This document shows, one piece after another, positions 1,784 through 29,798 of a stretch of 64,000 nt of DNA (the first letter of the stretch is position 1; the number at the start of each line of letters is the position of its first letter). The stretch spans positions 573,061 to 637,060 of the forward strand of contig JAXGYZ010000002.1 in the NCBI GenBank assembly GCA_040772005.1. The letters run 5' to 3'. Below the pieces are notes generated by a model that had not been told where the DNA came from, did not search any database, and saw only the letters and a program-made list of their open reading frames with translations. The position numbers and the translations under genes are program-made. Origin of the DNA: Anaerolineae bacterium. Its GTDB lineage: Bacteria; Chloroflexota; Anaerolineae; CG2-30-64-16.

Positions 1784-2066
1784 GGCGGGACGCCGGTGTT
1801 CTGCATGCGGGCAGGCTCCAGCCGGCTGATGCAGGCTGACCCAATACCCCGGCAATGAACGAGAGGAGTTTGCATCCTCAGATGCAAACGGCGGCGCCCG
1901 TGATGCGGGCCGTTCCGCATCTGAGGATGCGGAACTCCTCATGCTGGTTGCCAGGATACAGAGCCAATCTTCATAAGCCTCGACTCCAGGCGGCAGTGTC
2001 CTGGCGGTCGCTGGCAATACAAAGGCCCGGAGGTGTGTCCGGGCCTCTATATTATCCAGCTTCCGG

Positions 2067-2247
2067 CGGGCGCGTTTCATACTGGGGGCGCGGCCAGCGC
2101 GAATACGCGAATGGCGCTGCGGCGCTGGGCACGGATACACGAATATCCCGCCGCGGCGCACACGATTCGCGTATTCGTGGCGCGCCAGCGCATTCGTTTA
2201 TCCGCGATGGCCGCGCCCCCAACGTGAGACGCACCCGTTTCCGGCTT
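2067..2247 (+). repeat. Family-A structured palindromic repeat, copy 1 (~181 bp), flanked by 11-bp direct repeat CCAGCTTCCGG (2056-2066 / 2248-2258)
   Basis: About 95% identical to 29624-29798 and, in reverse orientation with an internal deletion, to 38497-38625. Nested inverted repeats (gcgtttcatactgggggcgcggcca...tggccgcgcccccaacgtgagacgc; gcgaatacgcgaat...attcgcgtattcg). Confidence 0.6.
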
Positions 2248-2259
2248 CCAGCTTCCGGT

Positions 2260-3318
2260 CTACAGCTTCGCCATCACGTCTTCCAGCGCGGCGCGGCTGG
2301 GGCGGAGCTTGTCCTCCGTCAGGTGGACGAGCGGAGTTTCCGGCACGTGCAGCAGCTCGTGCAGGTCGGGCCGCTCCTGCTGGTTGATGTAGATGAGGCC
2401 GGTGATGAACTGCTGGTTCTGCCGCGCCTCTTCGAGCGTGCGGAACGCGTTCATCTTGTCGGTCGGGTCATAGTCCGGGTCCAGCTTCTTGAGCAGGATG
2501 CGCGAGCCATCGTGCATCGCGACTTCCATCTCGCCCTCGTAGTAGCCGATGCTGATTTCCTCGTAGTGCGGGATGAAGTTCAGCTCGTTGAGCGCGGTCT
2601 CCTTCTGCTTGCCCCAGGTGTAGCTCTTGCTCGAATCGTCGTGGTTGTTGAAGGTGACGCACGGGCTGATGATGTCGAGCACGGCGATGCCGCGATGGCT
2701 GAACGCGGCCTTGAGCAGCGTCTCCACCTGGCGCGGGTCGCCCGCGAAGCTGCGCGCAACGAACGTCGCGTTGGCGGCCAAGGCCTCCAGGCAGATGTCG
2801 AGCGGGGGCAGGTTGTTGACCCCCGCGTACTTGAGCCGTTGGCCCAGGTCCGCGGTCGCGCTGAACTGGCCCTTGGTCAGCCCGTAGACGCCGTTGTTCT
2901 CCACGATGTAGAGCATCGGGACGTTGCGGCGCACCGCATGCTTGAACTGGCCGGTGCCGATGGAGGCCGTGTCGCCGTCGCCGCTGACGCCGATCACGGT
3001 CAGGTTGCGGTTGGCAATGGCCGCGCCGGTTGCCACGGCAGGCATACGGCCGTGCACGCCGTTGAACGCGTGGCTCCAGCCCAGGAAGTAGGCGGGCGAC
3101 TTGCTGCTGCAGCCGATGCCGCTCATCTTGACGACCTGCGTCTGGTCCAGGCCCAGCTCCCAGGCGACGTTGATGATGCGCTGGCTGATGGTATCGTGGC
3201 CGCAGCCCTTGCACAGGGTGGACGGCGCGCCCTTATACGCGTTCCGATCCAGGCCCAGGCTATTGACTTTAATCGCCGCCGCTGCCGGGCGGGCGGGTGC
3301 TTCAGTCGTGGTTCCCAT
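2260..3318 (-). CDS. korB: 2-oxoacid:ferredoxin oxidoreductase beta subunit (TPP-binding)
   Basis: MGTTTEAP...LCKGCGHDTI...GIGCSSK...GDGD motifs. Start at 3318 has a GGAGCA/AAGGAG-type RBS. An upstream TTG extension was rejected. Confidence 0.85.
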   Translation of the reverse strand: MGTTTEAPARPAAAAIKVNSLGLDRNAYKGAPSTLCKGCGHDTISQRIINVAWELGLDQTQVVKMSGIGCSSKSPAYFLGWSHAFNGVHGRMPAVATGAAIANRNLTVIGVSGDGDTASIGTGQFKHAVRRNVPMLYIVENNGVYGLTKGQFSATADLGQRLKYAGVNNLPPLDICLEALAANATFVARSFAGDPRQVETLLKAAFSHRGIAVLDIISPCVTFNNHDDSSKSYTWGKQKETALNELNFIPHYEEISIGYYEGEMEVAMHDGSRILLKKLDPDYDPTDKMNAFRTLEEARQNQQFITGLIYINQQERPDLHELLHVPETPLVHLTEDKLRPSRAALEDVMAKL

Positions 3319-7919: not shown

Positions 7920-7923
7920 GGAC

Positions 7924-8013
7924 GATTGAAGATTGAAAATTGAAGATTGAAGATTACAGACGAGGCGGCCATGTTTTGGCAATCTTCAATCTGTAATCTT
8001 CAATCTTCAATCC
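7924..8013. repeat. GATTGAA heptamer-repeat element forming a long perfect hairpin (gattgaagattacaga...tctgtaatcttcaatc)
   Basis: Tandem GATTGAA units in both arms; begins immediately after the gdh stop codon. Related copies at 12033-12106, 42848-42877 and 34635-34690. Confidence 0.7.
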
Positions 8014-8031
8014 GTAATCGTGGAGGGTGTG

Positions 8032-11170: not shown

Positions 11171-13135
11171 TCAGCCTGCTGCAGGGGGCGTGTGCTGGGG
11201 AGGTGCACCGTCGTGCTGATAGGCGGGCACGAGGATGCGGAAGGAGGCCTCGAGTGCGGCCGTGTCGCCGCGATAGGCGGCCTCGATCAGCCGCGCGACC
11301 TCCGGCTCCAGGAGGTCCTGCCGGCCGTTCTGCGCGACGAAAATCTTCTCGTGCCGGGTACGGCCATACTCCTCATCGGCTGCGAACAGCTCCTCGAACA
11401 GCTTCTCGCCGGGGCGCAGGCCCGTGAAGCGAATCTCGATGTCGTGCTCCGGCTCCAGGCCCGACAGCCGGATCAGGTCGCGCGCCAGGTCGACGATGCG
11501 GACGGGCTGGCCCATGTCGAGCACGAAGACCTCGCCGCCGTGGCCGAGCGCCGCGGCCTGGAGCACGAGCTGGACCGCCTCGGGGATGGTCATGAAGTAG
11601 CGGCGCACGTCGGGGTGCGTCACGGTGACGGGCCCGCCCGCGGCAATCTGGCGCTGGAAGAAGGGCACGACACTGCCGCGACTGCCGAGCACGTTGCCGA
11701 AGCGCACGGCGACGTAGCTGCAGCCGGTCTGCCGCGCGGCGGCCTCGACGAGCAGCTCCGCGATCCGCTTCGTGACGCCCATGACGTTGGTCGGGTTGAC
11801 GGCCTTATCGGTGGAGATGAGGACGAAGCGCTCGACCCCGGCAGCAATGCTGGCCTCGACCACGCGCTGCGTGCCCAAGATGTTGTTGAGCACCGCGTCG
11901 ACCGCGTTGTCTTCCATCAGCGGGACATGCTTGTGCGCGGCCGCATGGAAGACGATCTCGGGACGGTGCTCCGCAAAGACCGCGGCCAGGCGTTCGGGGA
12001 AGCGGATGTCGGCGATCACGGGTTGCAGATGCGATTGAAGATTGAAGATTGAAGATTGGAGGTCTGCGGGGTTCGTCTTCAATCTGGAATCTTCAATCTT
12101 CAATTCGTTATGGATGTCGAAGATGCTGTTTTCGCCGTGGCCGAGGAGGATGAGGCTGGCGGGGCTGCAGCGGAGAATCTGGCGGCAGAGCTCGGAGCCG
12201 ATGGAGCCGCCCGCGCCGGTGACGAGGACGCGCTTGCCGCGGAGCAGCGCGGCCACCTGGGCCGTGTCGGTCTGGATGGGGGCGCGGCGCAGGAGGTCCT
12301 CGATCTGGACATCGCGCAGTTGCTGGAGGCGGACGGCGCCGCCCAGCAGCTCGTAGATGCCCGGCACGGTGCGGGCGCGCACGCCCGCGGCCTCGCAGAT
12401 CTCCACGATATCGCGGATGGCCGCGCCGGGTGCGCTTGGCATGGCGATGATGACCTGCTCGATATGGTGTTCGCGGGCCAGGTCGGGGATGCGCTCGCGG
12501 CCGCCCAGGACGCGCACGCGCTGGAGCAGCATTCCGTGTTTGAGCGGGTCGTCGTCCACGAACCCGAGGGGCACCAGGCCGGTCTGCGGGTTCTGGCGCA
12601 GCTCCCGCAGCACCATTGCGCCCGCCTCGCCCGCACCGGCTATGAGGACATGCTGGAGCGGGCCGCCGGGAGCGCCGGCCTTGCGCGCGCGCTGTGCACC
12701 GAGCGCCCCGGCGCGCAGCGCGAAGCGTGACCCGGCAATGACCGCGAAGGTCACGAGCACGTCGATCAATGGGATGGAGCGCGGGACGCCGGGGGAGAGC
12801 AGCGCAGGGAAAATCGCCTGCGTGCCGAGGAAGAGCGCCCCCTGGGCCAGCGCACCGAGTGCCGCAGACCAGACGAGCAGCATCATCTCGTCCGGCCCCG
12901 CGTACTGCCAGTAGCGCGTGTAGAGGCCGAGCACGCTGAAGATGGGTATCTTGATGAATGGGGCCGCGATTACAAAGATCAACATCGTCCGCACGTAAGG
13001 CTGGAGCTGCGCGGTGTCCAGGCGCAGGGCGAACGCGAGCACCGCAGCCATCGGCACGAGCAGCATATCAGCTGCCAGCAGGTGCCGGTTGCGCACGCGC
13101 AGCAGGAGCTGCGTAAGGCCATATGAGTGTGTCAT
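11171..13135 (-). CDS. Membrane-anchored nucleoside-diphosphate-sugar 4,6-dehydratase/epimerase (CapD/WbpM/PglF family)
   Basis: N-terminal TM helices, then LVTGAGGSIGSEL Rossmann, then the catalytic STDKAVNPTNVMGVTKR. Start (13135) overlaps the upstream stop (ATGA). Contains an in-frame heptamer-repeat insertion. Confidence 0.8.
   Translation of the reverse strand: MTHSYGLTQLLLRVRNRHLLAADMLLVPMAAVLAFALRLDTAQLQPYVRTMLIFVIAAPFIKIPIFSVLGLYTRYWQYAGPDEMMLLVWSAALGALAQGALFLGTQAIFPALLSPGVPRSIPLIDVLVTFAVIAGSRFALRAGALGAQRARKAGAPGGPLQHVLIAGAGEAGAMVLRELRQNPQTGLVPLGFVDDDPLKHGMLLQRVRVLGGRERIPDLAREHHIEQVIIAMPSAPGAAIRDIVEICEAAGVRARTVPGIYELLGGAVRLQQLRDVQIEDLLRRAPIQTDTAQVAALLRGKRVLVTGAGGSIGSELCRQILRCSPASLILLGHGENSIFDIHNELKIEDSRLKTNPADLQSSIFNLQSHLQPVIADIRFPERLAAVFAEHRPEIVFHAAAHKHVPLMEDNAVDAVLNNILGTQRVVEASIAAGVERFVLISTDKAVNPTNVMGVTKRIAELLVEAAARQTGCSYVAVRFGNVLGSRGSVVPFFQRQIAAGGPVTVTHPDVRRYFMTIPEAVQLVLQAAALGHGGEVFVLDMGQPVRIVDLARDLIRLSGLEPEHDIEIRFTGLRPGEKLFEELFAADEEYGRTRHEKIFVAQNGRQDLLEPEVARLIEAAYRGDTAALEASFRILVPAYQHDGAPPQHTPPAAG
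12033..12106. repeat. GATTGAA heptamer-repeat hairpin element lying in-frame inside the capD-like CDS (encodes ...ELKIEDSRLKTNPADLQSSIFNLQS...)
   Basis: Same element as 7924-8013. The reading frame of the host gene is maintained across it. Confidence 0.65.
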
Positions 13136-14211
13136 GGATTGGATATGCCTTTTGTCGGGCCGCGCTGCTGCTCGTGAGAGCGAACAAAGTACCAGAGACT
13201 GAATGCCGCTACTGGGATCACGATTGCGATTGATAGAGATACTCCTGGCACAGACTGTACCCATGCAACAGCCAGCACTCCACCAAGAGCAGCAAGGGAT
13301 GCGTAGAGTATTGTGACGCTCTTGTGTGAATGGTCGAGGATTATCAGGCGCTGGTATAGATGTGATCGGTGTGCTGCAAAGACATTCTCATGGCGCACAA
13401 GTCTTCGCAGAAATGTGAAACTCGCATCGAAAACGAATGGCCATACAGCCAGTAGGCCTACTAGTGCCATTCGATGATCTTGTTGGTGTGCGGCAATTGT
13501 CAGTGTTGCGAGGACCGATCCAATGAAAGCACTGCCCACGTCGCCCATGAAAATGCGGGCTGGGGGCCAGTTGTCAGCAAGGAAAGCCGCACTTGCTCCG
13601 GCCAATACCAACCCTGTCAATCCGACACCCGTTAATCCGCTGGTGAACCCTACCACTGCCCAGGTGATTCCAGCGATAACGGCTTGGCTTCCCGCAATGC
13701 CGTCAATCCCGTCCATAAAGTTATAGGCATTGGTCAAGCCGACTAACCACATAAGTGTCAACGGCACACCCATCCATGCAAGGTGGATCTCTCCAATCAG
13801 AGGAAGCGTGATCAAATCCCAGTAGTCGACGCCGAGCATTATCGTAAGGGCGGCTAGAATGTGAGCAATCAGTCGGACTAAATTAGGTAGTGAACGAAGG
13901 TCGTCTATCAAGCTCACCAAGGCGACGAGAGTCCATGCGGCCGTGACTAGCAGTAGAGCAGTCCAGTAGGCTGAGGCGAAGGCGACGTTGGCGGATACAG
14001 TCAGAGCAATTGTAACAACTACAATGGCGAGACCTCCACCGCGCGGGATTGGTCGGCTATGGGAACTGCGTTCGTTTGGGATATCCAGGATCATATGATC
14101 CTCTGCAAATTGCCTGATCGCACGCACGCCCAGCCGCGACAGCAGGTAAGCACATGCGGCTATGATGCCGAGGGCCAGTGGGGCGATTTGAGGGGTCTCT
14201 TCACTCAGCAC
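13132..14211 (-). CDS. Undecaprenyl-phosphate sugar-1-phosphate transferase (WecA/WbpL-like; MraY/GT4 family)
   Basis: DIPNERSSHSRPIPRGGG and NAYNFMDGIDGI motifs; 10-11 TM helices. GTG start at 14211 chosen (overlaps the upstream stop by 11 nt). The TTG at 14319 would overlap 118 nt. Confidence 0.7.
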   Translation of the reverse strand: MLSEETPQIAPLALGIIAACAYLLSRLGVRAIRQFAEDHMILDIPNERSSHSRPIPRGGGLAIVVVTIALTVSANVAFASAYWTALLLVTAAWTLVALVSLIDDLRSLPNLVRLIAHILAALTIMLGVDYWDLITLPLIGEIHLAWMGVPLTLMWLVGLTNAYNFMDGIDGIAGSQAVIAGITWAVVGFTSGLTGVGLTGLVLAGASAAFLADNWPPARIFMGDVGSAFIGSVLATLTIAAHQQDHRMALVGLLAVWPFVFDASFTFLRRLVRHENVFAAHRSHLYQRLIILDHSHKSVTILYASLAALGGVLAVAWVQSVPGVSLSIAIVIPVAAFSLWYFVRSHEQQRGPTKGISNP

Positions 14212-15214
14212 TTGGGAGAACCCCGGAACGGCGCATTTCTGCGATGGTATCTTGCCAACCGAAAGATAAGTTATAGGCAGGCATGAAGTTGAGCTCCTGC
14301 ATGATCTTTGACCCGTCAACTGCTACGTTTTCAAGATACCTTTGCAGCATAGTACTGCTGACAGGCAACGGGTGTTTGATGATGCGTGAGAAGCCATCCG
14401 CAATCCGAAGCCCAAGCCGAATAGGCGCGACAGGCAACGCAATGTGCGGCGGTGGACGGCCTAGCCCATCGCAGATCGCTTCGATGATCTCGTGCAGCGA
14501 GTGGGTCTCGCCATCCGTCACATTATATATCTGCCCTGCTGCGCGAGGATGCTCGATGGCCGCCTGCACCGCGTTCGCCATGTCTTTATCGTAAATCAGC
14601 GTGCGCCGATTCCCACCGCTACCGATGGGCACAAAGCGCCTTTGCGATAGTGCGTACACGAGTCGGCTATAGTTGCCTTTGACGCGGCTGCCATACACTG
14701 ACGCAAGCCGGAGCACCACACCTAGCGGACCACCGTCCGGGCCTGCTGCAGATAACACGATGCGTTCGGCGGCGAACTTCGTTTTTGCATAGTACGTATC
14801 TGGCATGACCGATGATGACTCGTTAAGGAGGCCACCCATTCCAGCACCGTAGACGGCGATCGTGCTCAGGAAGACCAATCGCCGTACGCCAGCGCACCGG
14901 GCAGCTTCCACAACGGTGGCCGTCCCTTGCACGTTGACCCGCTCATACTCGGCATATAGATGCTGCGCTGGATTGCTGATGTGAAGAAGAGCGGCCATAT
15001 GAACAACATGAGTTACGTCTCGCATGGCCGCATCAATGAGATACTGGTCACAGATATCCCCAGTTAACCAGTCGTTGAGTTTTGCCTTAAGGGCTGCGGG
15101 TGGTTCCTGCAAGGCTAAACCACGGACGCGGTAGCCACTGGCGGCCAACTGATTGACAACCGTGGGTCCCAACGCGCCGGTGGCACCGGTAACAAGGATC
15201 AGCCGCTCATCCAT
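14201..15214 (-). CDS. NAD-dependent epimerase/dehydratase (SDR family; UDP-sugar 4-epimerase-like)
   Basis: LVTGATGALG Rossmann motif, YAKTK catalytic motif. ATG overlaps the upstream stop (ATGGATGA). Confidence 0.8.
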   Translation of the reverse strand: MDERLILVTGATGALGPTVVNQLAASGYRVRGLALQEPPAALKAKLNDWLTGDICDQYLIDAAMRDVTHVVHMAALLHISNPAQHLYAEYERVNVQGTATVVEAARCAGVRRLVFLSTIAVYGAGMGGLLNESSSVMPDTYYAKTKFAAERIVLSAAGPDGGPLGVVLRLASVYGSRVKGNYSRLVYALSQRRFVPIGSGGNRRTLIYDKDMANAVQAAIEHPRAAGQIYNVTDGETHSLHEIIEAICDGLGRPPPHIALPVAPIRLGLRIADGFSRIIKHPLPVSSTMLQRYLENVAVDGSKIMQELNFMPAYNLSFGWQDTIAEMRRSGVLPSAE

Positions 15215-16472
15215 GATTGTCCGGTGAAGCGTTCGTTACTTCTGCAATCACCCGATCATACGCCCCGATCACCGCGCTCTTGCTGTAGCGTTCTACAACC
15301 CATTTGCGCGCGTTTGCACTCATCGTCCGGGCCAAGTCCGGTGAATCATGTAAGCGTCGAATCGCTGCGATCATCTGGGGGGCAGACTCTGGCTCTACGA
15401 CGATTCCGCTATTTGAGCTAAGAAGTAGCTCCGCTGTCTCCGTTCCAGGTTCGCAAGCCGCTACAATCGGCCGTCCAGCCGCCATCGCGGTGTAAATTTT
15501 GGAGGGAACTGTGTCATACGAAAAACCCGATTGCATGGGAGAAACACAGATATCGGCTGTCGCATAGGTCTCTGGGATGCGGTTATAGGGCTGGAAGGGC
15601 AGTAATCGAATGTTGTTGAGCCCAGAAGCAGCGATCGCGTGTTCGAGCTTTGGCCTTGCTGCGCCGTCGCCAATAATCAACACGACAATATCGGTATCCA
15701 TCGCAAGTGCGTGTGCAACATCGACCAGTATCTCCAAACCTTGCGAAAGCCCGATATTGCCAGCGTAAAACACGACAAACTTGTCCTCCAGTCCGAATTC
15801 CTTAGCAAAGCTATTGTCTTTTGGCGTGGGGGATAGCCAATCGGTATCAACAAAGTTCGGTGTGAAGTGCAACTTGCTGTCCGGTACCCCGCGTGATACC
15901 AGGCTGCGGTTGAAGCTTTGAGCAATGGAGGTAATCGCAGCAGAATGATTGTACACAAACCGTTCGATAGCGTAAGCGAGCGCGATCAGAGCCTTGTTCT
16001 TTAGCAACCCCATGCGAATAGGTGCGTCTGGCCACAACTCCCGAACATCATAGATCATCTGGCCCCGCAGAAACACCTTCAATAAGAATCCATTGAGACC
16101 TAAGGTAATCGGCGGAGAAGGAACAAAAATGATATCCTGCCGCCCCAGTCTGGTCAATCCCACCACTAGAGTCAACACCTGAAACCACAGGTAGTCGAGT
16201 GCCCGACGCCAAATGCGTTGTCGCTTGAGCGGCATATACACGCGTACGACCTGCACACCTTTCTCGCTCGTTTCCGTATAGAGGGTGGGAAGTCGGCGGC
16301 GATAGATCGGGTTCTTGAGCACCTCGGGTGAGGGATTGTAGTGCGGCATCGAAGTCAGCACCGTGACCGTATGCCCGCGTTCCTGCAGACCGTGAGCCAG
16401 GTCAGTCATCAAGTTCGCAGTGGAAACCGTGTCCGGTCCGAAGACCAGGGAAAGCATCAGGACCCGGCTCAT
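15207..16472 (-). CDS. Glycosyltransferase family 4 (WbuB/WcaI-like)
   Basis: GT-B C-terminal motif SGFSYDTVPSKIYTAMAAGRPIV. Start at 16472 overlaps the upstream stop (ATGA). Confidence 0.75.
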   Translation of the reverse strand: MSRVLMLSLVFGPDTVSTANLMTDLAHGLQERGHTVTVLTSMPHYNPSPEVLKNPIYRRRLPTLYTETSEKGVQVVRVYMPLKRQRIWRRALDYLWFQVLTLVVGLTRLGRQDIIFVPSPPITLGLNGFLLKVFLRGQMIYDVRELWPDAPIRMGLLKNKALIALAYAIERFVYNHSAAITSIAQSFNRSLVSRGVPDSKLHFTPNFVDTDWLSPTPKDNSFAKEFGLEDKFVVFYAGNIGLSQGLEILVDVAHALAMDTDIVVLIIGDGAARPKLEHAIAASGLNNIRLLPFQPYNRIPETYATADICVSPMQSGFSYDTVPSKIYTAMAAGRPIVAACEPGTETAELLLSSNSGIVVEPESAPQMIAAIRRLHDSPDLARTMSANARKWVVERYSKSAVIGAYDRVIAEVTNASPDNHG

Positions 16473-17332
16473 TTGGAACCTCGCCCCTTGCGCAGCTCGA
16501 AGTAGCAGGCGTCCACATAGAATCTGAACCACAGGCCGTGCAGACCATGATAAATCAAGCCTTCGGGACCATCCAGGAAACCGCCTCGCACGATATAGCG
16601 GATGAGAAAGTAAAGCACTGCGCGCAGGAAGAGCGGACCGCGTTCATATACGGATGCCCTGAGCCAGCGGCGGCGCTGAATCGGTGAGCCCATCAGCTTG
16701 GCTTCAAGGAGTCCATTGCCTGTTTCGCCTGCCCGTTTCAGAAGATGCTGGGCTTCCATCTGCGCCCAGCGGTTGTGTCGGGCTGTCCAGGACGAGAGCG
16801 ACGTAGCCGTGACTTCGATCAGGTCGGCTTCGAGCTGTTCCACTTTGCCGTGGACGAGAAAGTGTTGGTCGTATTCCCGTTCTTCGCAGCGCCCCGCACT
16901 GCGTTGAAAGATGCGGCAATGATAAGTAGGATAAATGCCGCCATGAAGCATGTAGCGGCCGAGGAACTCGATGCGACGGCGGATGAGCAGCCCTGCAACC
17001 GACGCATATGACGGATCGCTGAAGAAATGTGTAAGCGCCGAGACCAACTCCGGAGTCGCTCGTTCATCCGCGTCAACATGAAATACCCAGTCGAAGCTTA
17101 ACGGAAGGTGTTCCTGCGCCCAGTTGCGCTGTCGCGAGTAATTCTCGAAGGGGTGAGATACGATCTTGTCGGTAAAGCTCCTAGCAATGCTGAGAGTTGC
17201 ATCGGTGCTGCCGGAATCGACGACGAACATCTCGCCGGCCCAGCCTGCCAACGATTGCAGACAGGCCTGGATGTTAGATTCCTCGTTGAGGGTCAGGACG
17301 ATGACGGAGATGGGCAGTGTATTTGCGTTCAT
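16469..17332 (-). CDS. Glycosyltransferase family 2
   Basis: ISVIVLTLNEE...VVDSGSTD...HVDADE (DXD) motifs. Confidence 0.8.
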   Translation of the reverse strand: MNANTLPISVIVLTLNEESNIQACLQSLAGWAGEMFVVDSGSTDATLSIARSFTDKIVSHPFENYSRQRNWAQEHLPLSFDWVFHVDADERATPELVSALTHFFSDPSYASVAGLLIRRRIEFLGRYMLHGGIYPTYHCRIFQRSAGRCEEREYDQHFLVHGKVEQLEADLIEVTATSLSSWTARHNRWAQMEAQHLLKRAGETGNGLLEAKLMGSPIQRRRWLRASVYERGPLFLRAVLYFLIRYIVRGGFLDGPEGLIYHGLHGLWFRFYVDACYFELRKGRGSK

Positions 17333-18460
17333 CTATGGTCTGATGATTTCTCCGTACGCTTCGATGGTCTGCATCGCGGTCTTACGCCACGAAAACCGGC
17401 CGACATGCTCTCGCCCACGCTGCCGCAACTCCATTTGGAGCGCCTCGCTATTAGCAACGGACGCGATCTTAGCGGTCATATCATCGATCGAGAAAGGATC
17501 GAAAAAGACAGCGGCATCACCGCCGACTTCAGGCAACGATGCCACGTTGGAGCAGAGCACCGGGACATCGGCCGCCATAGCTTCAAGCACCGGCAATCCA
17601 AACCCTTCGTAAGTCGACGCAACGATAAAGGCAGCTGCATGGTGCAATAACACCTGCAAAGTGCGATCCTCAAGGTAGCCAGTCAGGATCAAGCTTCCAG
17701 CTTCAAGGCCTGCCGTGTAGGCAGCAATGTCATCCGGGGTCAGGCGTCCCACGATCACCAATTGCTGCCTGACGTTGTGCTGTTCGTGCGCCTGCCGAAA
17801 GGCTTGAATCAGTGCAGGGATGTTCTTGTTGGGGCCGAGATTGCCGAACGCCATCAGATAGGGTTGTCTGATGCCGAAACGTTCAAGCTCAGCCTTCATC
17901 TCCTCGCGGGACATTTGCAGCGGCGGGCGCTTGCGGGCTGCATCCTCAATCACTACGACGCGGTCAGCCCGGATGTTTGGATAGGCATCCAGGATTTGCC
18001 TCTTTGAGAAGTGTGATGGAGTAATGATGCGGTCGGAGCGTGAAGCAGATTGATGAACAAAGAAGGCCAAGGCTGCGCGTTTCCTGGCGGGCATCTGTGC
18101 GCCGAAGGCCTGGTAGTTCAGATCGTGAATCGTGACTATAGACGGGATGGGCAAGCAAAGGGGAGCTACATAGCCGAGAGAATGCAGCAGACTTAGTCTG
18201 TACGGTCGAACAAGAAAGGGCAGATAGAGCTGTTCAAAAATGTAGCGGCGAACCCGATGCACTGCCGATATGGGGCACACAATTCGGTGGAAATTGGGTT
18301 TAGCGGGCAGAGGCCACTCTCGCGATTCGCGATTGACAAAGACAAAGAATTCACATCGCTCGCCGGTTTCAGCGAACCCATCAAGCAAGCCGGCGGCATA
18401 TGTCTCGGTTCCGCCGACAATACCTGGCAAAAGATAGGCCAGATTCAGGCCGATCCGCAT
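17333..18460 (-). CDS. Glycosyltransferase family 4
   Basis: STYEGFGLPVLEAMA motif. Start chosen at MRIGLNLAYLLPG (18460), 5 nt after the upstream stop. The upstream in-frame extension is AT-poor filler. Confidence 0.7.
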   Translation of the reverse strand: MRIGLNLAYLLPGIVGGTETYAAGLLDGFAETGERCEFFVFVNRESREWPLPAKPNFHRIVCPISAVHRVRRYIFEQLYLPFLVRPYRLSLLHSLGYVAPLCLPIPSIVTIHDLNYQAFGAQMPARKRAALAFFVHQSASRSDRIITPSHFSKRQILDAYPNIRADRVVVIEDAARKRPPLQMSREEMKAELERFGIRQPYLMAFGNLGPNKNIPALIQAFRQAHEQHNVRQQLVIVGRLTPDDIAAYTAGLEAGSLILTGYLEDRTLQVLLHHAAAFIVASTYEGFGLPVLEAMAADVPVLCSNVASLPEVGGDAAVFFDPFSIDDMTAKIASVANSEALQMELRQRGREHVGRFSWRKTAMQTIEAYGEIIRP

Positions 18461-18465
18461 ATCTG

Positions 18466-19989
18466 TCAGTTCTGCGAAAGGCTTGTCTGCACTAACTTCT
18501 TCATCCACTGTTGTTTTCTCTGTGGTAGTCGCTTGCTCAATGCCACGATTCCTGCGGCGAATAGGACAGGATACAAGAACCCTGGGCTTAGATAGCGATA
18601 GGTCACAAGGAGCCAAACGGCCAGCATCGCGCCGACCGCAAATTGGTAAGGGTCCTCGGCATAAGACACACGGGAGAGGAATCTGTCACACCTTACTGAA
18701 ATGAAGGCAAGGATAACGCCAATCATGATGGGCCCTAGCCAGCCCCAACTCATGTAATATTGACCCACAATGCCTGGGAAGGTATTACCAGATTCTGTAT
18801 AGATATCAATTCCCCAACGCATCAGGGTGTAGAACCACGCCACCTCGGTGGCGGGCTTATTTTCCCACAGGAAACGCGGGATGGGGGAGACTGCGAATTG
18901 AAGCAGGGCACTCTCCCGAAAATAGTCATGATAGCTTGGTACTATTGCTACTGCGAGGGCAGTTTCAGAGAAGTAGTCGGTTGTACCGCTGAGTGTTGCC
19001 CAGTTGTCCAAAAGCAGATCGGCCGTCTCATATCGAGTGTAGCTGTATCGGAAGAGGAGTTGAAACTGCAACGCAAAAAACAACACTATGGTAAGGATCA
19101 ATAAAACCGTAGTTGCATAAAACTTTGAGCGAGTCCAGGCTCTAGTGAATAGGAGAACAATGGCCGGGAGTAACATCATGGCTGTTAGTGAGCGTGTTCC
19201 CTGATCAAAGAAGAGAAGAACGGTAACGATCGATGCTACGAATGCACCTGCGATGCGCAGGCCGATTTTCACTCTTTTATCTTGTAGAACAACAAGAAGT
19301 AGACCTGCACCGGCTGTCATGGCACTTCTGGTCAGGTATAGGACTGCGCTGATGCGATTGCCCAGATTCTCCGTATACGTCCACGGTTTATCAACGGCTC
19401 GACTTTCCAAAATGCTACCAACAATGTCCCGAAAAGACATGCCTGATAGCAGATATGGAAGGAAGCCTATCGCACAGGCCAAAAGGGCTATCGTTACCAG
19501 CACAGCAGGGTTGCTAGATGACACTGGTTGCTGCTCGGGGCTGTTGCGGCTCTGACGCCCGAATAATCGCGATGCTAGTACCCAGACGAAGAGAAACAGG
19601 GCAAGGTAAAGTATTGTAAGAAGGAGGGTTTCTTCGTGGATGAATATCGGTAGTTCATCACTGAATCCGCTTGATGTCGTCCACAGGTTGAGTAGTCCGG
19701 GCAATGAATACCATCCCACGAAGCCAAGCATAATCATCAGTCTGCCCCATCGACGTGACTGGATACTCGGCATTGCGTGCTTTAGCAGGAGAGAAAGAGA
19801 AGCAGAAAAAAGCACAGCAGTGAGGAGACGAAGTGTAGTGTCGCCATGCGCTTGTAATACTACGGATATCAGTGCAGCAATGAGGGGCAGGGCAGCTAAC
19901 CAAAAATCGAAGAGCATCTGACGAAAACCGCTCTTCCTGTCGGCACTCAATCGGCGCTTAGATGGCACTGCACGCACCAGAGGAGTCAT
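18466..19989 (-). CDS. O-antigen/EPS polymerase-like polytopic membrane protein (Wzy-like)
   Basis: About 12 predicted TM segments with a large loop; position within the glycan operon; low GC. No diagnostic motif, so the call is by context. Confidence 0.5.
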   Translation of the reverse strand: MTPLVRAVPSKRRLSADRKSGFRQMLFDFWLAALPLIAALISVVLQAHGDTTLRLLTAVLFSASLSLLLKHAMPSIQSRRWGRLMIMLGFVGWYSLPGLLNLWTTSSGFSDELPIFIHEETLLLTILYLALFLFVWVLASRLFGRQSRNSPEQQPVSSSNPAVLVTIALLACAIGFLPYLLSGMSFRDIVGSILESRAVDKPWTYTENLGNRISAVLYLTRSAMTAGAGLLLVVLQDKRVKIGLRIAGAFVASIVTVLLFFDQGTRSLTAMMLLPAIVLLFTRAWTRSKFYATTVLLILTIVLFFALQFQLLFRYSYTRYETADLLLDNWATLSGTTDYFSETALAVAIVPSYHDYFRESALLQFAVSPIPRFLWENKPATEVAWFYTLMRWGIDIYTESGNTFPGIVGQYYMSWGWLGPIMIGVILAFISVRCDRFLSRVSYAEDPYQFAVGAMLAVWLLVTYRYLSPGFLYPVLFAAGIVALSKRLPQRKQQWMKKLVQTSLSQN

Positions 19990-19995
19990 GCTGGC

Positions 19996-21021
19996 CTACT
20001 CACAGTCAACTTCTGTGTTCTCTCGACTACTAGTAGCATCGAGCAAGGATTCTACTTCATGTATGATGGAGGGCTCCTCAGTGGTTGATATGGTTTTCAG
20101 CCTGCTATGAGCAGATCGATAACAGCCTTTCATGATCTCTAGGCGAGCCAGTTCTAGTTCAAGCGGGGCATACTTGGTTGCCAGTTGACTTCCTGCCTTA
20201 AGAATCTGCCAGGCTCGTGCTACATCTCCATTCTCTAGTAAAGCCTTAGCAGTCCAAAAGTAGGTTGCTGGCTGACTATCATCTAGCTCCAGCGCGTGAA
20301 GAAAATGTATGATAGCCTTCTCAGTTTCGCCATGAAGAAGTTCTTTCTGTCCGAGCAGTGACTCAGAGGTCACGCTATGCTCGACCGCTTCAAAACTCTC
20401 ACACGGATCTAGAATAATGCTGCTCTCACCGGTGCGAATAGCTTCCATGCACAGATACATATACATATGAGACTTGCGAGCATCCAGTGTGGGGTCGATG
20501 TCTTGTGCAATTTGAAAGTATTGTTTGGCAGCATCTTCATCATGATCGAGTTCGATCTTAAGCCTCCCTTGCCCGACGTACCAAAGAGCTGAATCAGGGG
20601 TGAACTGTCGGAGTGTCAAGGCTTCTTCTGCCTTGCCCTGAGCTTCTAGAACTTGGCTGAAGTAAATGATGTCGGCTTCGTCTGGTGTTAGTCCACGTGA
20701 AAGGGCAAAGCGAAGCCAATTTGCCAGCACTTCACTACTCTCACATGACAGGAATAGGTAGCGCGTCAGCCGATACTTGCTAGTCGGCTGTGTCTCCATT
20801 GGTGGGGTCCTCAAAGAGGCTTCGTTGGATGGACAGAGTAATCGCTTGGACTCCTGAGATAGGAGCGGCCATATCCCGGGTACATGATGGGGCAAACTGG
20901 AGCGCATTACAGACAAAGTTCGGAATGAAAGACGCAGAGTGTCCCAGGGAAAGCCAAGGACGGTAATACTGCATGCAACGAATATCGCGACGAGCGAAAT
21001 GAAGAACCGGCGATCAGTCAT
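19996..21021 (-). CDS. Hypothetical membrane-anchored protein with TPR-like repeats
   Basis: Single N-terminal TM (FFISLVAIFVACSITVLGF), then helical repeat region. Start ambiguous (21021, 21033 or 21057). Confidence 0.45.
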   Translation of the reverse strand: MTDRRFFISLVAIFVACSITVLGFPWDTLRLSFRTLSVMRSSLPHHVPGIWPLLSQESKRLLCPSNEASLRTPPMETQPTSKYRLTRYLFLSCESSEVLANWLRFALSRGLTPDEADIIYFSQVLEAQGKAEEALTLRQFTPDSALWYVGQGRLKIELDHDEDAAKQYFQIAQDIDPTLDARKSHMYMYLCMEAIRTGESSIILDPCESFEAVEHSVTSESLLGQKELLHGETEKAIIHFLHALELDDSQPATYFWTAKALLENGDVARAWQILKAGSQLATKYAPLELELARLEIMKGCYRSAHSRLKTISTTEEPSIIHEVESLLDATSSRENTEVDCE

Positions 21022-22216
21022 TGCGCAGTCCATCTTTGTTGCTGATGCTAGTTGCATCGATGATCTGCCTGACAGCTTCTCGAAAGCTTCGGCGGAAGGT
21101 TTCGGGTGAGTAGCGAGTGTCGGTTGCGTGCAGCACCTTTTCTGCGCGCCGACGGCAGTCGTCTGGGCTGGCGGTACTAGTCTCAACGATCACTGAGCGA
21201 ACAGCCGCGACTGTCAGTGATTCGATGCGGTAGCCCCAGTCTTCCAGGTCGATATTTGCTGTGACCGGCAGGATGGGTATCAGCCCATGCGCCATGCACT
21301 CGATGACAGAGCCGGGCTGTCCTTCCGCACAGGTCGGCAGAATCACCCAATTGCACATCGCGGCCAGTTTTCTGAACTCCGGCGACCGCATCTTCACGTA
21401 ACCATGGACATGAACATTTCTGTTCCCGCTGAGTTCAGCAGCAAAGGCACGAGCGAACTCGGGCTGAATGTGCTGGCAGACGTGAAGGTGGAGGTCGGTG
21501 TCGTGAAAGGCCTGGAGCAGCAGGTCAAGCCCCTTGTGAACATTCCCGAGACCACTGAAGAACAAGAAATGCTTCCGCCCTGCCTCAAAATCCTTTTCAG
21601 CCAAGTTGATGCCATCGAGGGGATAAGCTGCGTTGCATACGGATACTACATTCTTGAGATGAGCAAAAGTCTGCGCCGCAGCTTCGTTCCCCAGGCAGAT
21701 CGTGCCATCTGACAGCCGGTGTGCCTCCTCTTCTATCGGTGAGCTGACACGCTCCGGGGGCAGCAGCACGCCCTTGCTAAGCGCGATATCAAAGAGACGT
21801 TGTGCGGCGCGAGTGTTTTGTTCGCGCCAATACAAGCCGGTTGCAAAGTAGACCGTGACGGGTCGATGGCTGAGTAAGCCGACTAGACGGGTAAAATTGA
21901 AGTTCGCATGCCCGATGAAAAGGTCGTAAGCGCGCGTAGGAATCCAACTCTGGTTGGTACAATCCACGATATCGACTTCGAACCCTAGTTCGTTCAGCGC
22001 ACGAGGTATTTCCCTGGCGAGTCCCTGATTGCTGAACTGCGCGGGATCGCGAAATTTTGCTGGCAAGAGGAGAGGATGGACAAGATACGATACGAGCGCT
22101 CTGCGACTGGGAGTGCCCATACAGTATTCGCGGTAACCGCGGACTGTTCGGCGCTTAAGAAGCGCATAGAGGTATTCAAGGACTGCCGCACGCGGCTTTT
22201 GAGTACCTTCTTTCAC
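21014..22216 (-). CDS. Glycosyltransferase (GT-B fold, GT1/GT4-like)
   Basis: C-terminal EGQPGSVIECMAHGLIPI motif. GTG start overlapping the upstream stop (GTGA); an ATG at 22120 is an alternative start. Confidence 0.55.
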   Translation of the reverse strand: MKEGTQKPRAAVLEYLYALLKRRTVRGYREYCMGTPSRRALVSYLVHPLLLPAKFRDPAQFSNQGLAREIPRALNELGFEVDIVDCTNQSWIPTRAYDLFIGHANFNFTRLVGLLSHRPVTVYFATGLYWREQNTRAAQRLFDIALSKGVLLPPERVSSPIEEEAHRLSDGTICLGNEAAAQTFAHLKNVVSVCNAAYPLDGINLAEKDFEAGRKHFLFFSGLGNVHKGLDLLLQAFHDTDLHLHVCQHIQPEFARAFAAELSGNRNVHVHGYVKMRSPEFRKLAAMCNWVILPTCAEGQPGSVIECMAHGLIPILPVTANIDLEDWGYRIESLTVAAVRSVIVETSTASPDDCRRRAEKVLHATDTRYSPETFRRSFREAVRQIIDATSISNKDGLRND

Positions 22217-23580
22217 GACTTCAAGTCCAAGTCGGATAAAATCTGCGCGCGTGTTGCGGATTCACTATTATCATTGCTCGAGGCATGCCAGCGCGCTCGT
22301 GAACGTTGGAATATCCACACAGTAATCGGCAGTTCGAGGAGTACAAGCACGCCTAGATATCCAGCACCTACACCTGTGGCTCCGTATGAGGGAGCCAATA
22401 ACAAAGCGAGAGCGGCGATCACCATACTTCCTACCAGAAACACACCCATCAGTGGTTCGCGCTTGTGGGCCCTCAAGTAGGTGGATAGGCCAGAAAGCAC
22501 AGAACTCACCACCCCCGCGATGAGGAAGACGCCGGCGGGGCCGGGCGGCAATACTCTGCTCGCCAATGGATGCTGCAAGCCCTCCAGAAGCAAGATGAGT
22601 CCCCAGGCGCCCAGCGCCAGGACTAGACCTATTACAAGGGACATGAACAACGAGCGAAAAAACGAACTATCCAGCTCACGCCACTTCCGCTCGGCTACAA
22701 GAACACCATAGCGTGGCGCCTTTGTCACGACCCAGTTCGATGACATAGCCATTACGACGTTGGCGAGGGTGTTTGTCATTCCCATTTGACCAGCCACAGC
22801 CGGGCCGGCGCTCCGGAAGAGCACGGGGGTAAAGAGCTGGCTGGTAAAATATGTGCTGATCCAACTGACCGCAATACGCCATTGTATGGGCCAAACATCC
22901 TGCCGCCAAGCAATCCTGGGCCCATCGGGTGATATCAAGAAAGCCCGGCAGAATGCTGCGTAGCGATGGAGAAAGAAGACACTCCAGACCAACCCACACG
23001 CAGAAGCCAGTGGCAAAGTCCACAGCTTCGCGCCGGAGATAATCGCGGCCCACAGCGCCAGGCCGTTAACGACTTGTTGAACCAACCTATAAAACCAGAA
23101 TGGTGCGACCTCATTGCAGCCCTGCAATAGGTAAAAGAGGGGAGTCAGACATAAGTTCAGCCCTAAACCCAAACACAGGGCCAGCCACGGCAGTTGCCAT
23201 TCGATGCCAGGAGTCGGCGTGCGAGAAAAAAACGCGTAACCACCTGCACCGAGTCCCAGAACGACCAGAACCGCGGCGACACTATACCACTTCATGGATA
23301 GGCGACCCAGACTAATGAGTCGTGAACGCGCTGCTGCGTCTCCCTCAATGCGGAAGCCCGGTGCGAACTTCAGGCGTGCCCACTCATGACTTGCAAACTG
23401 AATGATAGCCTGACCAAGGCCCAGCTCGACAAGAAACTGTAACGCTGTAAGGCTGCCAAAGGTATAGTAATATCCTTGAAGTTCGGGCGTGAAACGCATT
23501 GCGATGAGCAGGGCAGTTATCGGGCCCAGAACAAGGGAAACCAGATTGCCGAGCAGCGCGAACGCCACTGCGCGATCCAT
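22213..23580 (-). CDS. Polysaccharide/O-antigen flippase (Wzx; MOP/MATE-like exporter superfamily)
   Basis: 14-TM topology typical of PF01943 family. First gene of the low-GC island. ATG at 23580 chosen over the TTG at 23607. Confidence 0.7.
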   Translation of the reverse strand: MDRAVAFALLGNLVSLVLGPITALLIAMRFTPELQGYYYTFGSLTALQFLVELGLGQAIIQFASHEWARLKFAPGFRIEGDAAARSRLISLGRLSMKWYSVAAVLVVLGLGAGGYAFFSRTPTPGIEWQLPWLALCLGLGLNLCLTPLFYLLQGCNEVAPFWFYRLVQQVVNGLALWAAIISGAKLWTLPLASACGLVWSVFFLHRYAAFCRAFLISPDGPRIAWRQDVWPIQWRIAVSWISTYFTSQLFTPVLFRSAGPAVAGQMGMTNTLANVVMAMSSNWVVTKAPRYGVLVAERKWRELDSSFFRSLFMSLVIGLVLALGAWGLILLLEGLQHPLASRVLPPGPAGVFLIAGVVSSVLSGLSTYLRAHKREPLMGVFLVGSMVIAALALLLAPSYGATGVGAGYLGVLVLLELPITVWIFQRSRARWHASSNDNSESATRAQILSDLDLKS

Positions 23581-23654
23581 GTCCGCGCGACGGAGGAGAT
23601 TCAGCAATCGGGCACACCGATCAATTCACAAGGAGTTGCTGGTTCCACGGGTTC

Positions 23655-24530
23655 TCACCCCAGCCCCGTCTCCGCCAGCCGGATCAAATACTGGCCGTAC
23701 TCGTTGCCGCGCATCAACTGCCCCTGGGCGAGCAGCGCGTCGCGCGTGATGTAGCCCATCCGGTAGGCGATTTCCTCGGGGCAGGAGATCATCATGCCCT
23801 GCCGCTCCTGGACGGCCTGGACGAAGCCGCTGGCCTGCAGGAGCGTCTCGTGCGTGCCGGCGTCCAGCCAGGCGACGCCCCGGCCCATCTGGTCGACGCG
23901 CAACTGGCCGCGCTCCAGGTAGGTGCGGTTGATGTCGGTGATCTCGATCTCGCCGCGCGCGGAGGGGCGCAGGTTGGCCGCGATGTCGCTCACCTGGTCG
24001 TCGTAGAAGTAGAGGCCGGGCACGGCATAGTGCGACTTGGGGGCCTGCGGCTTCTCCTCGATGCTGATGGCGCGGCCGGACGCGTCGAACTCGACGACGC
24101 CGTAGCGCTGCGGGTCCCTGACCGGATACGCGAAGACGAGCGCGCCCTCGGTCAGGCCGGCCGCCGCGCGCAGTTGGGCGGGCAGGCCGTGGCCGTAGAA
24201 GATGTTGTCGCCGAGGATGAGGCAGGCCGGCTGGCCGGCGACGAACTCGCGGCCGATGATGAAGGCGTCGGCCAGGCCGCGGGGGGTGGGCTGCTCGGCA
24301 TACGCGAAGTGCAGGCCCCACTGGTCGCCCCCGCGCAGGAGCGTGCGGAACGCGGGCAGGGCCTCCGGTGAGCTGATGATGAGGATGTCGCGGATGCCCG
24401 CCAGCATGAGCATGGAGAGCGGGTAGTAGATCATCGGCTTGTCGTAGACCGGCAGCATCTGCTTGCTGACGGCCATCGTCAGGGGATAGAGCCGCGTCCC
24501 CGCCCCGCCGGCCAGGATGATACCTTTCAT
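23655..24530 (-). CDS. rfbA: Glucose-1-phosphate thymidylyltransferase
   Basis: [18 protein letters not shown]...; the C-terminal region matches RmlA throughout. Confidence 0.9.
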
Positions 24531-24539: not shown

Positions 24540-25104
24540 CCGAATAGGACACTGATTGAACTGATTGGACTGATCTTCATGTTCTTTTCAGATTCGGCTT
24601 CAGGTGATTCTCGAAGATCTTGCGCACAACGCGAGGCTTGGGACCGAAGTTGACGACCAGTCCGACCTCATAGGGCGTGGCTTTCAGATAGTTCAGCAGC
24701 TGCGCCGCATGGTCCGGTGATATCTCGCTGGCAGCCTTGAGCTCCAACAACACGAGGTCGTTCACGACGAGGTCGGCAAAGTACTCACCCACGATACAAC
24801 CGTCGAAGAACACCGAGATCGGCCGCTGCTGCTGAACCTGCAGGCCATGCGCCCGGAGCCGCATGGCGAAGGCATTCTCATAGACCTTCTCCAGGAAGCC
24901 ATAGCCCAGGGCGTTGTAGACGTCGTAGAATATCTGGATTATCTGCCGGGTCAGCGCACTGTGCTTGTAAGTGGAGACCTCGTACGAACCCCGTTCCTCG
25001 TCCAGTTCGATCATGGTCACATCACTCATAAGACTGATGACGCTAACTTATCAGAATCAGATCAGGTAAATCAGCGTCATCAGTTCAATCAGCGTCCTAT
25101 TCGG
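24540..25104. mobile_element. 565-bp cassette bounded by 24-bp inverted repeats CCGAATAGGAC(A/G)CTGATTGAACTG, carrying a GxxExxY-family gene
   Basis: Left repeat at 24540-24563; right repeat at 25081-25104 is its reverse complement (23/24 identical). The interior is AT-richer than the flanking rfbA and sat. Confidence 0.5.
24577..25029 (-). CDS. GxxExxY protein (PD-(D/E)XK nuclease-like superfamily, TIGR04256-type)
   Basis: [13 protein letters not shown]... and [14 protein letters not shown] core. About 150 aa, typical of the family. Confidence 0.65.
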
Positions 25105-29056: not shown

Positions 29057-29485
29057 ACACTGGCATCCTGTTCTACTGCACAGATTAAGCCCATGCTCCG
29101 CGGGCCCGGGCCGGTCGCGCCGGCCTGGGATGCGGTGCGTGACATACGCAGGCACGCTGGCCTGTCGCCTCGGTGCGGTCATGACAGTTACCCTGCCACA
29201 GCCACACGCGCAGACAGGCGGCAGATATGGAGCCACCCGGAGCACCCGAATCGATGCGGCACGCTCACGGCTCGGTGCGCCCTCAAGCCAGGGGGTGTCG
29301 CGGCGGGTCAGCGTATCCGAAGCTGCTACGACGGCGTGGCTCGCTATGGCTGCTTGCCTCGCTTCTCACGGCGAGGCACAGCTCCCCTTACAAAAAAAAG
29401 CGGCCCTCCGGAGCAGAACCCCAGCCAGGCCGTCTTGGTATGCGTTCGCATATGTTCCCAAAGAAAAAGAGGAGCGTTTCAGAAA

Positions 29486-29568
29486 TGCCCCCGGCCCGAC
29501 TCGAACGGGCACGCCCTTATGGGCACAGGCCCTCAACCTGCCGTGTATGCCAATTCCACCACGGGGGC
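29486..29568 (-). tRNA. tRNA-Leu (anticodon GAG), 83 nt, long variable arm, no encoded CCA
   Basis: The reverse complement folds as a cloverleaf. The acceptor stem is GCCCCCG/CGGGGGC with discriminator A. The D-arm is GUGGAAUUGGCAUACAC, as in E. coli tRNA-Leu. The anticodon stem is GCAGG/CCUGU with loop UUGAGGG. The variable arm is GCCCAUAAGGGC. The T-arm is GCCCG-UUCGAGU-CGGGC. Confidence 0.85.
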
Positions 29569-29623
29569 ATTGTGACCGTATTATACCGCTTCTCTGTTGC
29601 CTGTCAATAACAGACCCCTTGCT

Positions 29624-29798
29624 CGGCGCGTTTCATACTGGGGGCGAACGCGGCCAGCGCGAATACGCGAATGGTGCTGCGGCGCCGGGCACGGATACAC
29701 GAATATCCCGCCGCGGCGCACACGATTCGCGTATTCGTGGCGCGCCAGCGCATTCGTTTATCCGCGATGGCCGCGCCCCCAACGTGAAACGCACCCAC
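29624..29798 (+). repeat. Family-A structured palindromic repeat, copy 2
   Basis: About 95% identical to 2067-2247. Confidence 0.6.

Follow-up and report, generated by a model that had tools for sequence, protein, structure and literature searches.

Rickettsia palindromic elements (RPEs) were reportedly described by Ogata et al. in 2000 as repeats of about 150 nt that lie in frame within protein-coding genes. They are summarized in a survey that also reviews prokaryotic MITEs, among them QMITE2 of Coxiella with its direct repeats of 7–9 bp, inverted repeats of 23–29 bp and core of 113–145 bp (PMC10969869). In Acinetobacter, MITEAba12 is 113 bp long with 78% A+T and 16-bp inverted repeats, resides together with its known parent ISAba12, and shows a recognizable duplication at 40% of its copies (PMC6382973). 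The hairpins of Correia (NEMIS) and ERIC elements in untranslated regions may undergo RNase III cleavage or affect mRNA stability (PMC10969869), and REPs are 20–40 nt long, share a conserved tetranucleotide (GTAG/CGTC) and do not duplicate their target (PMC3733652). Our literature search found no MITE described for Anaerolineae (Chloroflexota).

We analyzed a repeat of about 170 nt, family A, in a 64-kb stretch of Anaerolineae DNA, the whole of which is hereafter called the window. Searching with a family profile in nhmmer detected exactly three copies in the window, bearing out the three related copies that an earlier note on this DNA had claimed. The element ends were defined by comparison with about 30 family A copies from elsewhere, those of copy 1 with about 15 other copies. 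Copy 1, an imperfect palindrome of 169 nt whose ends were set by this comparison, occupies positions 2068–2236 on the plus strand, copy 2 (173 nt) positions 29624–29796 on the plus strand, and copy 3 (134 nt) positions 38508–38641 on the minus strand; the earlier bounds of 2067–2247, 29624–29798 and 38497–38625 were thereby refined, with the left end of copy 2 unchanged. Copies 1 and 2 are separated by one 4-nt indel and four substitutions, so that their relatedness stands but their identity is about 98% instead of the earlier figure of about 95%. Copy 3 has the opposite orientation, and its length falls 35 nt short of that of copy 1.

The imperfect terminal inverted repeats of about 24 bp described earlier are present in each copy at a length of about 23 nt (GGGCGCGTTTCATACTGGGGGCG / CGCCCCCAACGTGAAACGCACCC) and recur in independent copies. 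In copy 1, the left repeat lies at 2068–2090 (GGGCGCGTTTCATACTGGGGGCG) and the right repeat at 2214–2236 (CGCCCCCAACGTGAGACGCACCC), both given on the plus strand. Across family A, the terminal inverted repeats are about 23–30 nt long, start with GGG...CCC and have the common termini GGGCGCGTTTCA... and ...GCRCCC. The inverted-repeat arms measure 47 nt with 81% complementarity, and a further stem, CGCGGCCA / TGGCCGCG, lies inside the outer arms. A 13-nt motif, CGAATAnnCGAAT, is present in the interior in four versions, two of them direct (left half) and two inverted (right half), which the alignments place in copy 1 at 2100–2112 (plus strand, CGAATACGCGAAT), 2132–2144, 2165–2177 (inverted) and 2192–2204 (inverted) and which form the best-conserved part of the family. 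The element is about 68% G+C and almost entirely palindromic; its reading frames gave no protein-family matches and are open only through the G+C content. Both strands are predicted to fold far better than shuffled sequences (z = −8.0 and −6.7 as RNA, −6.5 as DNA), with a predicted RNA fold of −124 kcal/mol (z = −8) for copy 1.

Beyond the window, about 30 further copies were collected, all of them in related Anaerolineae genomes and metagenome contigs. A 20-nt core word located 15 loci in three Anaerolineae/Anaerolineales MAGs, 13 of them in R69_164, a fragmented MAG about 93% identical to the window across an orthologous 1.9 kb, along with five chance matches in other phyla; a two-arm pattern yielded ten metagenome contigs with copies. 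Viral contigs scanned with the terminal repeat and the inner arm gave chance matches only, and a distant-mode search of a plasmid collection returned no match to the element. Settings of the copies ranged from a 3′ UTR and a site upstream of a promoter to operon spacers and the interior of ORFs, with either orientation to the neighboring genes, and five sites were occupied in more than one species (L002/L014/L020, L005/L018, L006/L025, L015/L030 and L008/copy 3). Integron attC sites follow the consensus RYYYAAC/GTTRRRY; this candidate identity was rejected, as the terminal sequences of family A deviate from that consensus and the copies lie outside cassette arrays.

We then compared the sequences flanking the elements. 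The target-site duplication is 9 bp long and directly abuts the element ends. Among 10 independent insertions tested, five matched at 7–9 of the nine abutting positions, namely L010 and L004 (9/9), window copy 1 and L009 (8/9) and L003 (7/9), and the others were weaker: copy 2 and L029 reached 5/9, L005a 3/9 (6/8 at k = 8), and copy 3/L008 and L001 2/9 each. Five copies with at least 7/9 arose in only 2 of 100 000 permutations, mismatched pairings of left and right flanks reached a maximum of 6/9, and the five strong copies matched better at k = 9 than at any other length from k = 5 to 12. Two loci depart from this fixed stagger, with a 13-bp duplication and a cut-back right arm at L006/L025 and a 22-bp duplication and a cut-back left arm at L024. 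Retro-element-like insertion, which would combine variable duplication with truncation, was nevertheless rejected as the general mechanism because each full-length copy retaining a recognizable duplication has exactly 9 bp; the pattern of a longer duplication with a cut-back arm remains confined to a minority of loci. A duplication running on into the left arm, as observed after the 9-mer in L010, L004 and L009, was also discarded since the copies do not agree in it and an adjacent second element explains it in L009. An identical 10-mer adjoins the element in the contigs of L009 and L027, yet their further flanks differ.

For copy 1, the duplication in the family register (k = 9) consists of the 9-mers at 2059–2067 (GCTTCCGGC) and 2237–2245 (GTTTCCGGC), which agree at eight positions. 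The earlier note had instead read an 11-bp direct repeat, CCAGCTTCCGG, as a possible target-site duplication, and this part of its reading has to be replaced by the abutting 9-bp repeat. It had named recurrence of the 11-mer at unrelated positions, or a lack of terminal inverted repeats in other copies, as grounds for refutation; exact occurrences of the 11-mer in the window are restricted to 2056 and 2248, and the inverted repeats are present in other copies, so that neither check speaks against a mobile element. The 11-mer overlaps the left 9-mer, but on the right it is a different and more distal sequence (2248–2258), so that the 11-mer proximal to korB stands 11 nt away from the element end. 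It falls within a remainder of a tandem array with a 14-nt period at 2246–2273 (minus strand), which also holds the korB stop codon (2260–2262) and the last korB codons. With the element taken out together with one of the 9-mers, the minus strand would read as the 14-nt tandem units GAAGCTGTAGACCG / GAAGCTGGAAGCCG / GAAGCTGGATAATA, the first of which would represent the last codons of korB, and we infer that the 11-mer repeat belongs to this array, which probably existed at the korB 3′ end before the insertion. The predicted empty allele on the plus strand is TATTATCCAGCTTCCGGCTTCCAGCTTCCGGTCTAC, with a single GCTTCCGGC. The empty site of copy 1 was not recovered among relatives with KorB identity of at least 90%, in which a different gene follows korB; in relatives with 90–92% KorB identity, korB is followed by gdh, PhoU or a T-box-like leader, or the contig ends at the stop codon.

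A filled and an empty version of one site were obtained for another family member. At L003, a 165-nt copy lies inside a gene for Iso_dh (homoisocitrate/isopropylmalate dehydrogenase) and is flanked by GCCGGCCAC and GCCGGCCGT, two 9-mers of the form GCCGGCC(AC/GT). An 88%-identical orthologue (P0126, L070) is without the element and has a single GCCGGCCGT at that point, and the insert is likewise absent from the closest Iso_dh orthologues (83–88% identity). Such a filled and empty pair is what transposition through a 9-bp staggered cut classically leaves behind. The 165-nt insert and the 9-bp duplication together add 174 nt, or 58 codons, and the ORF therefore stays open. A second in-frame copy was found in the gene of a Wzy_C/TPR membrane protein (L005/L018), where it has been kept in two species, and both in-frame copies are read in the same frame of the element (...SRIRGAPAGA..SRWPRP). 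A profile search with the peptide encoded by the element gave no significant protein match, and an exhaustive protein search for in-frame copies returned only a spurious ORF over window copy 2 and one low-complexity protein. Intragenic loci account for 2 of about 22 independent loci, most copies being intergenic.

Taken as a whole, the copies at unrelated loci, the common ends, the 9-bp duplication and the filled and empty pair support transposition as a MITE, and family A is very probably a non-autonomous DNA transposon of an uncultured Anaerolineae lineage that was moved in trans with a 9-bp duplication. The proposal in the earlier note that the inverted-repeat element is mobile and duplicates its target site is thus supported by the duplication found across the family together with the filled and empty pair. 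Like described prokaryotic MITEs, family A members are shorter than 200 nt and have no coding capacity, end in terminal inverted repeats of 23–30 nt next to a flanking duplication, form a very stable predicted hairpin, occur as many dispersed and mostly intergenic copies and are clustered or nested with other repeat families. The family accordingly shows a size below 500 bp without a transposase, inverted repeats, a constant duplication and dispersed copies, and L003 compared with L070 supplies the empty site. Its sequence is, however, unrelated to those of described MITEs, and it is G+C-rich whereas many of them are A+T-rich. We regard family A as a real and fairly ordinary element, the sequence of which is new and the class of which, the prokaryotic MITE, is already known.

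The transposition reading would imply the following steps. A transposase acting in trans would bind the terminal repeats, introduce a 9-bp staggered cut in the target and join the element there, and repair of the stagger would yield the direct 9-bp duplication. Copy 1 would have entered the korAB operon within its short 3′ untranslated part, and copy 2 would have landed just upstream of the promoter of a tRNA-Leu gene. The parent insertion sequence would be bounded by GGGCGCGTTTCA...TGAAACGCRCCC ends and a 9-bp duplication. A transposase gene bounded by the family termini was absent from the window and from about 200 kb of related contigs, and no parent element emerged from a search for the terminal repeats with mismatches in the window and all collected loci. 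A scan for inverted repeats 0.7–3.5 kb apart and Pfam searches of a low-GC island and of the genes near the repeats likewise revealed no parent transposase. The low-GC island, at 14–24 kb, contains polysaccharide genes.

Among characterized systems, MITEAba12 and ISAba12 share with family A the 9-bp duplication, which can be recognized at some copies only, 40% in the Acinetobacter case and about half in family A. The termini of both follow the pattern GGnnnnGTTnCAnA, and GGGCGCGTTTCATACT agrees with GGCTTTGTTGCACAAA at 9 of 16 positions by our own count. For the IS5 family (IS903/ISAba12-like), with termini of the type GGCTTTGTTG.A, the duplication length agrees and the termini match the ISAba12 repeat at 9/16, a comparison of insertion-sequence families that draws on one published repeat table (PMC6382973). 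The resemblance to ISAba12 and MITEAba12 is suggestive only and may serve as a lead. Family A differs from MITEAba12 in its length of 169–173 nt, its G+C content of about 68%, its almost wholly palindromic structure and the lack of a parent among the sequences searched. With RPEs, family A shares the habit of palindromes of about 150 nt sitting in frame in conserved genes with the reading frame kept, as in Iso_dh at L003 and in Wzy_C/TPR at L005/L018. The likeness concerns the insertion habit. Family A is mostly intergenic, has a clear 9-bp duplication and belongs to an unrelated phylum, and it was not filed as an RPE member because of this difference in host phylum. Family A resembles REP/BIME repeats, which are mobilized by RAYTs, in being an interspersed extragenic palindrome, a type often found at gene 3′ ends, but it differs from them in its 169-nt size, the absence of a GTAG/CGTC tag at its ends and the 9-bp duplication.

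The position of copy 1 next to korB had suggested that it could act as the terminator of this gene. The korB gene (2-oxoglutarate/2-oxoacid:ferredoxin oxidoreductase beta subunit; 2260–3318, minus strand) lies downstream of korA, and a convergent gene for a PT-rich beta-propeller surface protein lies on the other side of the element. Copy 1 starts 23 nt past the korB stop codon, and on the korB strand it would fold into a very strong hairpin, as a terminator of korAB would. The hairpin is, however, followed on that strand by GCCGGAAGCTGGATAATATAG and not by the U tract of an intrinsic terminator. Reading along the korB strand, the stop codon, a 23-nt spacer, the element and a 21-nt spacer are followed by a canonical bidirectional intrinsic terminator at 2023–2046 (AGGCCCGG..CCGGGCCT), which has a 9-bp G+C-rich stem preceded by an A-rich run and followed by a T-rich run and serves both korB (minus strand) and the convergent surface-protein gene. 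In relatives with at least 90% KorB identity, the element is absent and an ordinary hairpin-plus-T-run terminator ends korB, and the remaining family A copies are not located at gene 3′ ends. It is therefore extremely improbable that copy 1 terminates korAB, and the missing U tract together with the terminators of the relatives led us to consider copy 1 an insertion into the 3′ UTR. Because it lies between the korB stop codon and the operon terminator, it is predicted to be carried as cargo in the korAB mRNA, transcribed as a long hairpin. Correia elements of Neisseria and ERIC elements of enterobacteria, which are imperfect palindromes of 100–170 nt co-transcribed in untranslated regions, are in the situation predicted here for copy 1; Correia elements differ in duplicating TA instead of 9 bp.

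The other two copies in the window occupy different settings. Downstream of copy 2 is a perfect TTGACA-16-TATAAT promoter of tRNA-Leu(gag), with 16 nt between the element and the −35 box. Copy 3, which has no recognizable duplication, lies in a 162-nt spacer flanked by genes for GH127 and an amidohydrolase that share the same strand. The orthologous site in the sister genome R69_164 (L008) carries a 161-nt element, and by comparison with it a segment of 27 nt between two CGCGAATA direct repeats is missing from copy 3; the inverted orientation and the loss of about 35 bp noted earlier thus hold against the length of copy 1, but against its own orthologue the loss is 27 nt. Since the element is present at the orthologous site, copy 3 is an old insertion that later lost these 27 nt and is decaying inside the operon spacer. 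Copies 1 and 2 and the copies at L010, L029 and L021 are 96–99% identical to one another at five different loci, a higher identity than the 93% between the window and the genome of R69_164, which hosts L010.

The stable folding of the element raises the question of whether it is a structured RNA, either a cis-regulatory 3′-UTR element or a small RNA, whose hairpin is under selection at the RNA level. Apart from the folds predicted for both strands, this idea draws on copies 1 and 3, which are placed for co-transcription with neighboring genes, and on the substitutions between copies 1 and 2 in the outer helix, which had been described as G/A changes opposite a U and taken as a possible RNA-level constraint. 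That pattern comprises three transitions, all wobble-compatible on the plus strand, an outcome with a chance probability of about 1 in 8, and it does not extend to the family. Arm mismatches across family A consisted of 203 transversions, 56 mismatches wobble-compatible on the plus (element) strand and 90 wobble-compatible on the minus strand, so that the wobble type does not favor the element strand. In the outer helix, 83% of the cells were paired through plain conservation of both arms, covariation did not exceed that of column shuffles (45 of 500 for the percentage paired and 173 of 500 for the covariation score), and the conserved core showed almost no compensatory change. The arms are thus conserved as sequence and do not evolve by compensatory change, and with neither covariation nor a strand-specific G·U excess we found no evidence of RNA-level selection. 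At the gathering score, no Rfam family matched anywhere in the window, and a permissive search around copy 1 (E up to 10) gave only weak generic hairpins of the miRNA type. The orientation to neighboring genes is also mixed, copy 1 being antisense to korB and copy 3 sense to its neighbors, copy 2 is upstream of a promoter, and some copies are in frame within protein-coding genes. A structured RNA is therefore a very improbable account of family A.

The family is modular in its composition. L018 has a different repeat core within the same termini, GGGCGCGTTTCAC... / ...GGAGCGCGCCC, and a duplication matching at 7/9 in the 9-bp register, and this repeat-core family also occurs in the window at 32383–32580 and 36805–36992. 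Conversely, the family A core was also found with other outer arms. The shared termini of L018 would fit a shared transposase, and identical termini around different interiors would be expected of several non-autonomous derivatives of one transposon system. Across sub-families, conservation is higher in the internal core, with its four CGAATAnnCGAAT motifs, than in the terminal repeats. The search patterns used for collecting copies lay in the core and inflate its apparent conservation, for which they account only in part.

BIME and Correia elements carry sites for IHF or gyrase. By analogy with these, family A could be, or have become, a set of dispersed DNA sites to which a host protein binds, with the CGAATAnnCGAAT motifs as putative sites and mobility as a secondary property. 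In favor of such a role, conservation across sub-families with differing outer arms is highest in the columns of the 13-nt motifs and the GGCCATCGCG/CGCGATGGCC stems, and the same site is filled in two or three species at L002/L014/L020, L005/L018 and L008/copy 3. Besides the inflation of core conservation by the search patterns, however, no candidate binding protein could be connected with the element, the segment lost from copy 3 carried a motif and its loss shows no sign of counter-selection, and the in-frame intragenic copies argue for neutral hitch-hiking. We thus consider a binding platform quite improbable as the primary explanation; the idea is compatible with the MITE explanation and does not exclude it.

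Within the MITE explanation, a more far-reaching version can be formulated, in which a transposase would recognize the internal CGAATAnnCGAAT motifs, two per arm, as subterminal sites and would define an undescribed insertion-sequence group of Chloroflexota, the loci with 13- and 22-bp duplications would represent a second insertion route, and the in-frame copies would form a second RPE-like case. We regard this version as speculative and unlikely in its entirety. The 13- and 22-bp loci with a cut-back arm could in themselves reflect a second, non-canonical insertion route. If the version were true, Anaerolineae would be a second and independent case of the phenomenon known from RPEs in Rickettsia.

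As a MITE, family A leaves current concepts of mobile DNA unchanged and is of modest, specialist interest, mainly for the annotation of Chloroflexota MAGs and for RPE-like in-frame insertions. Anaerolineae, which are poorly studied and mostly uncultured, carry active-looking MITEs for which possible targets include 3′ UTRs, promoter-proximal DNA and, with the frame kept, genes of conserved enzymes, among them homoisocitrate dehydrogenase. The near-identical young copies, where polymorphic for insertion, could provide strain markers in wastewater or digester metagenomes. Hairpin repeats of this kind also break MAG assemblies, several copies being located at contig ends and two contigs ending in artificial palindromes. 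The repeats can pass for terminators or small RNAs and produce spurious ORF calls, and a public protein collection already includes one of these ORFs (P0246), which extends over copy 2 and the antisense strand of tRNA-Leu.

Copies of family A, the small palindromic repeat read as a MITE with 9-bp target duplications, were also found in frame inside genes of related Anaerolineae loci. In the locus L003, a homoisocitrate/isopropylmalate dehydrogenase gene (L003:619-1812) contains a minus-strand copy (L003:1403-1567) as an in-frame insertion of 58 codons, counting the duplication, and its orthologues are without this insert. Different repeat-like peptide inserts, such as SFAIRSFAIRSFAIRHSPIRS and RISESANQRIS, were found in other Anaerolineae dehydrogenase homologues, both in the loop that holds the L003 insert and in a second loop. 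Another copy leaves the reading frame open within the gene of a membrane protein of ~780 aa with Wzy_C (O-antigen ligase-like) and TPR domains, and this copy is conserved at the identical position in two species (L005:6161-6341 and L018:271-465).

Another repeat family, with the core CATCCTGAGCGGAG...CGAAGGAGCGCC...GCTCCGCTCAGG, was found at window positions 32383-32580 and 36805-36992 and at L018:1409-1590. The L018 core is bounded by family-A-type termini, with a flanking duplication that agrees at 7 of 9 positions in the 9-bp register, and we therefore conclude that termini and cores combine modularly. One metagenome contig has four or more related units, some in each orientation, crowded into 1 kb (L028:1149-2161). 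Gene-end hairpins in the window (7920-8020, 12029-12111 and 42830-42889) consist of GATTGAAG-type short tandem repeats opposite their inverted copies.

Two insertions, one in L006:2700-2895 and L025 and the other in L024:30-230, have one arm shortened to a GGGGG/CCCCC run and longer flanking duplications of 13 bp (L006/L025) and 22 bp (L024), which do not fit a simple 9-bp event. Contig breaks were found at or beside family-A copies in several contigs, and the L033 contig stops at the stop codon of korB. The MAG contigs of L007 and L016 both terminate in perfect palindromes running through a family-A element, which are probably assembly artefacts.

Copy 1 (2068-2236) was inserted 3' of the korB stop codon. 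Three 14-nt tandem units make up the korB 3' end (window 2246-2273, plus 2059-2067 before insertion), the first being the last korB codons with the stop codon. The 11-mer on both sides of copy 1 (2056-2066 and 2248-2258), proposed in the earlier note as a possible target-site duplication, appears from its sequence to be present because the korB 3' end carries these units. A further palindromic repeat, TTTGCATCCTCAGATGCAAAC...GCATCTGAGGATGCGGAAC, lies between a surface-protein gene and a terminator (window 1860-1940), with a partner arm at 36244-36274.

Copy 2 (29624-29796) lies 16 nt from a perfect TTGACA-16-TATAAT promoter (window 29580-29607, minus strand) that precedes tRNA-Leu(gag). A 256-aa ORF (window 29227-30025, plus strand) covering the antisense strand of this tRNA gene and copy 2 is spurious and has been deposited in a public protein collection (P0246). 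Farther upstream is a second promoter-like site (window 29859-29887, minus strand), from which predicted transcription would cross copy 2. Directly after copy 2, two tandem copies of a 184-nt unit share 99% identity (window 29909-30276), and a third copy, 87-91% identical, is 10.6 kb away (40718-40894).

A low-G+C island (window 14000-24000; 51-58% G+C versus ~66% elsewhere) carries genes for glycosyltransferases and for an epimerase, with no transposase found within it. It is likely to be a polysaccharide cluster gained by horizontal transfer. A 150-aa PD-(D/E)XK nuclease gene (window 24540-25104; Pfam PDDEXK_3, E = 3.5e-38) is flanked on both sides by 46-nt inverted repeats of CTGATTGA-type short repeats, and together they look like a separate small selfish unit. 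A similar sequence adjoins a family-A copy in the related locus L001.
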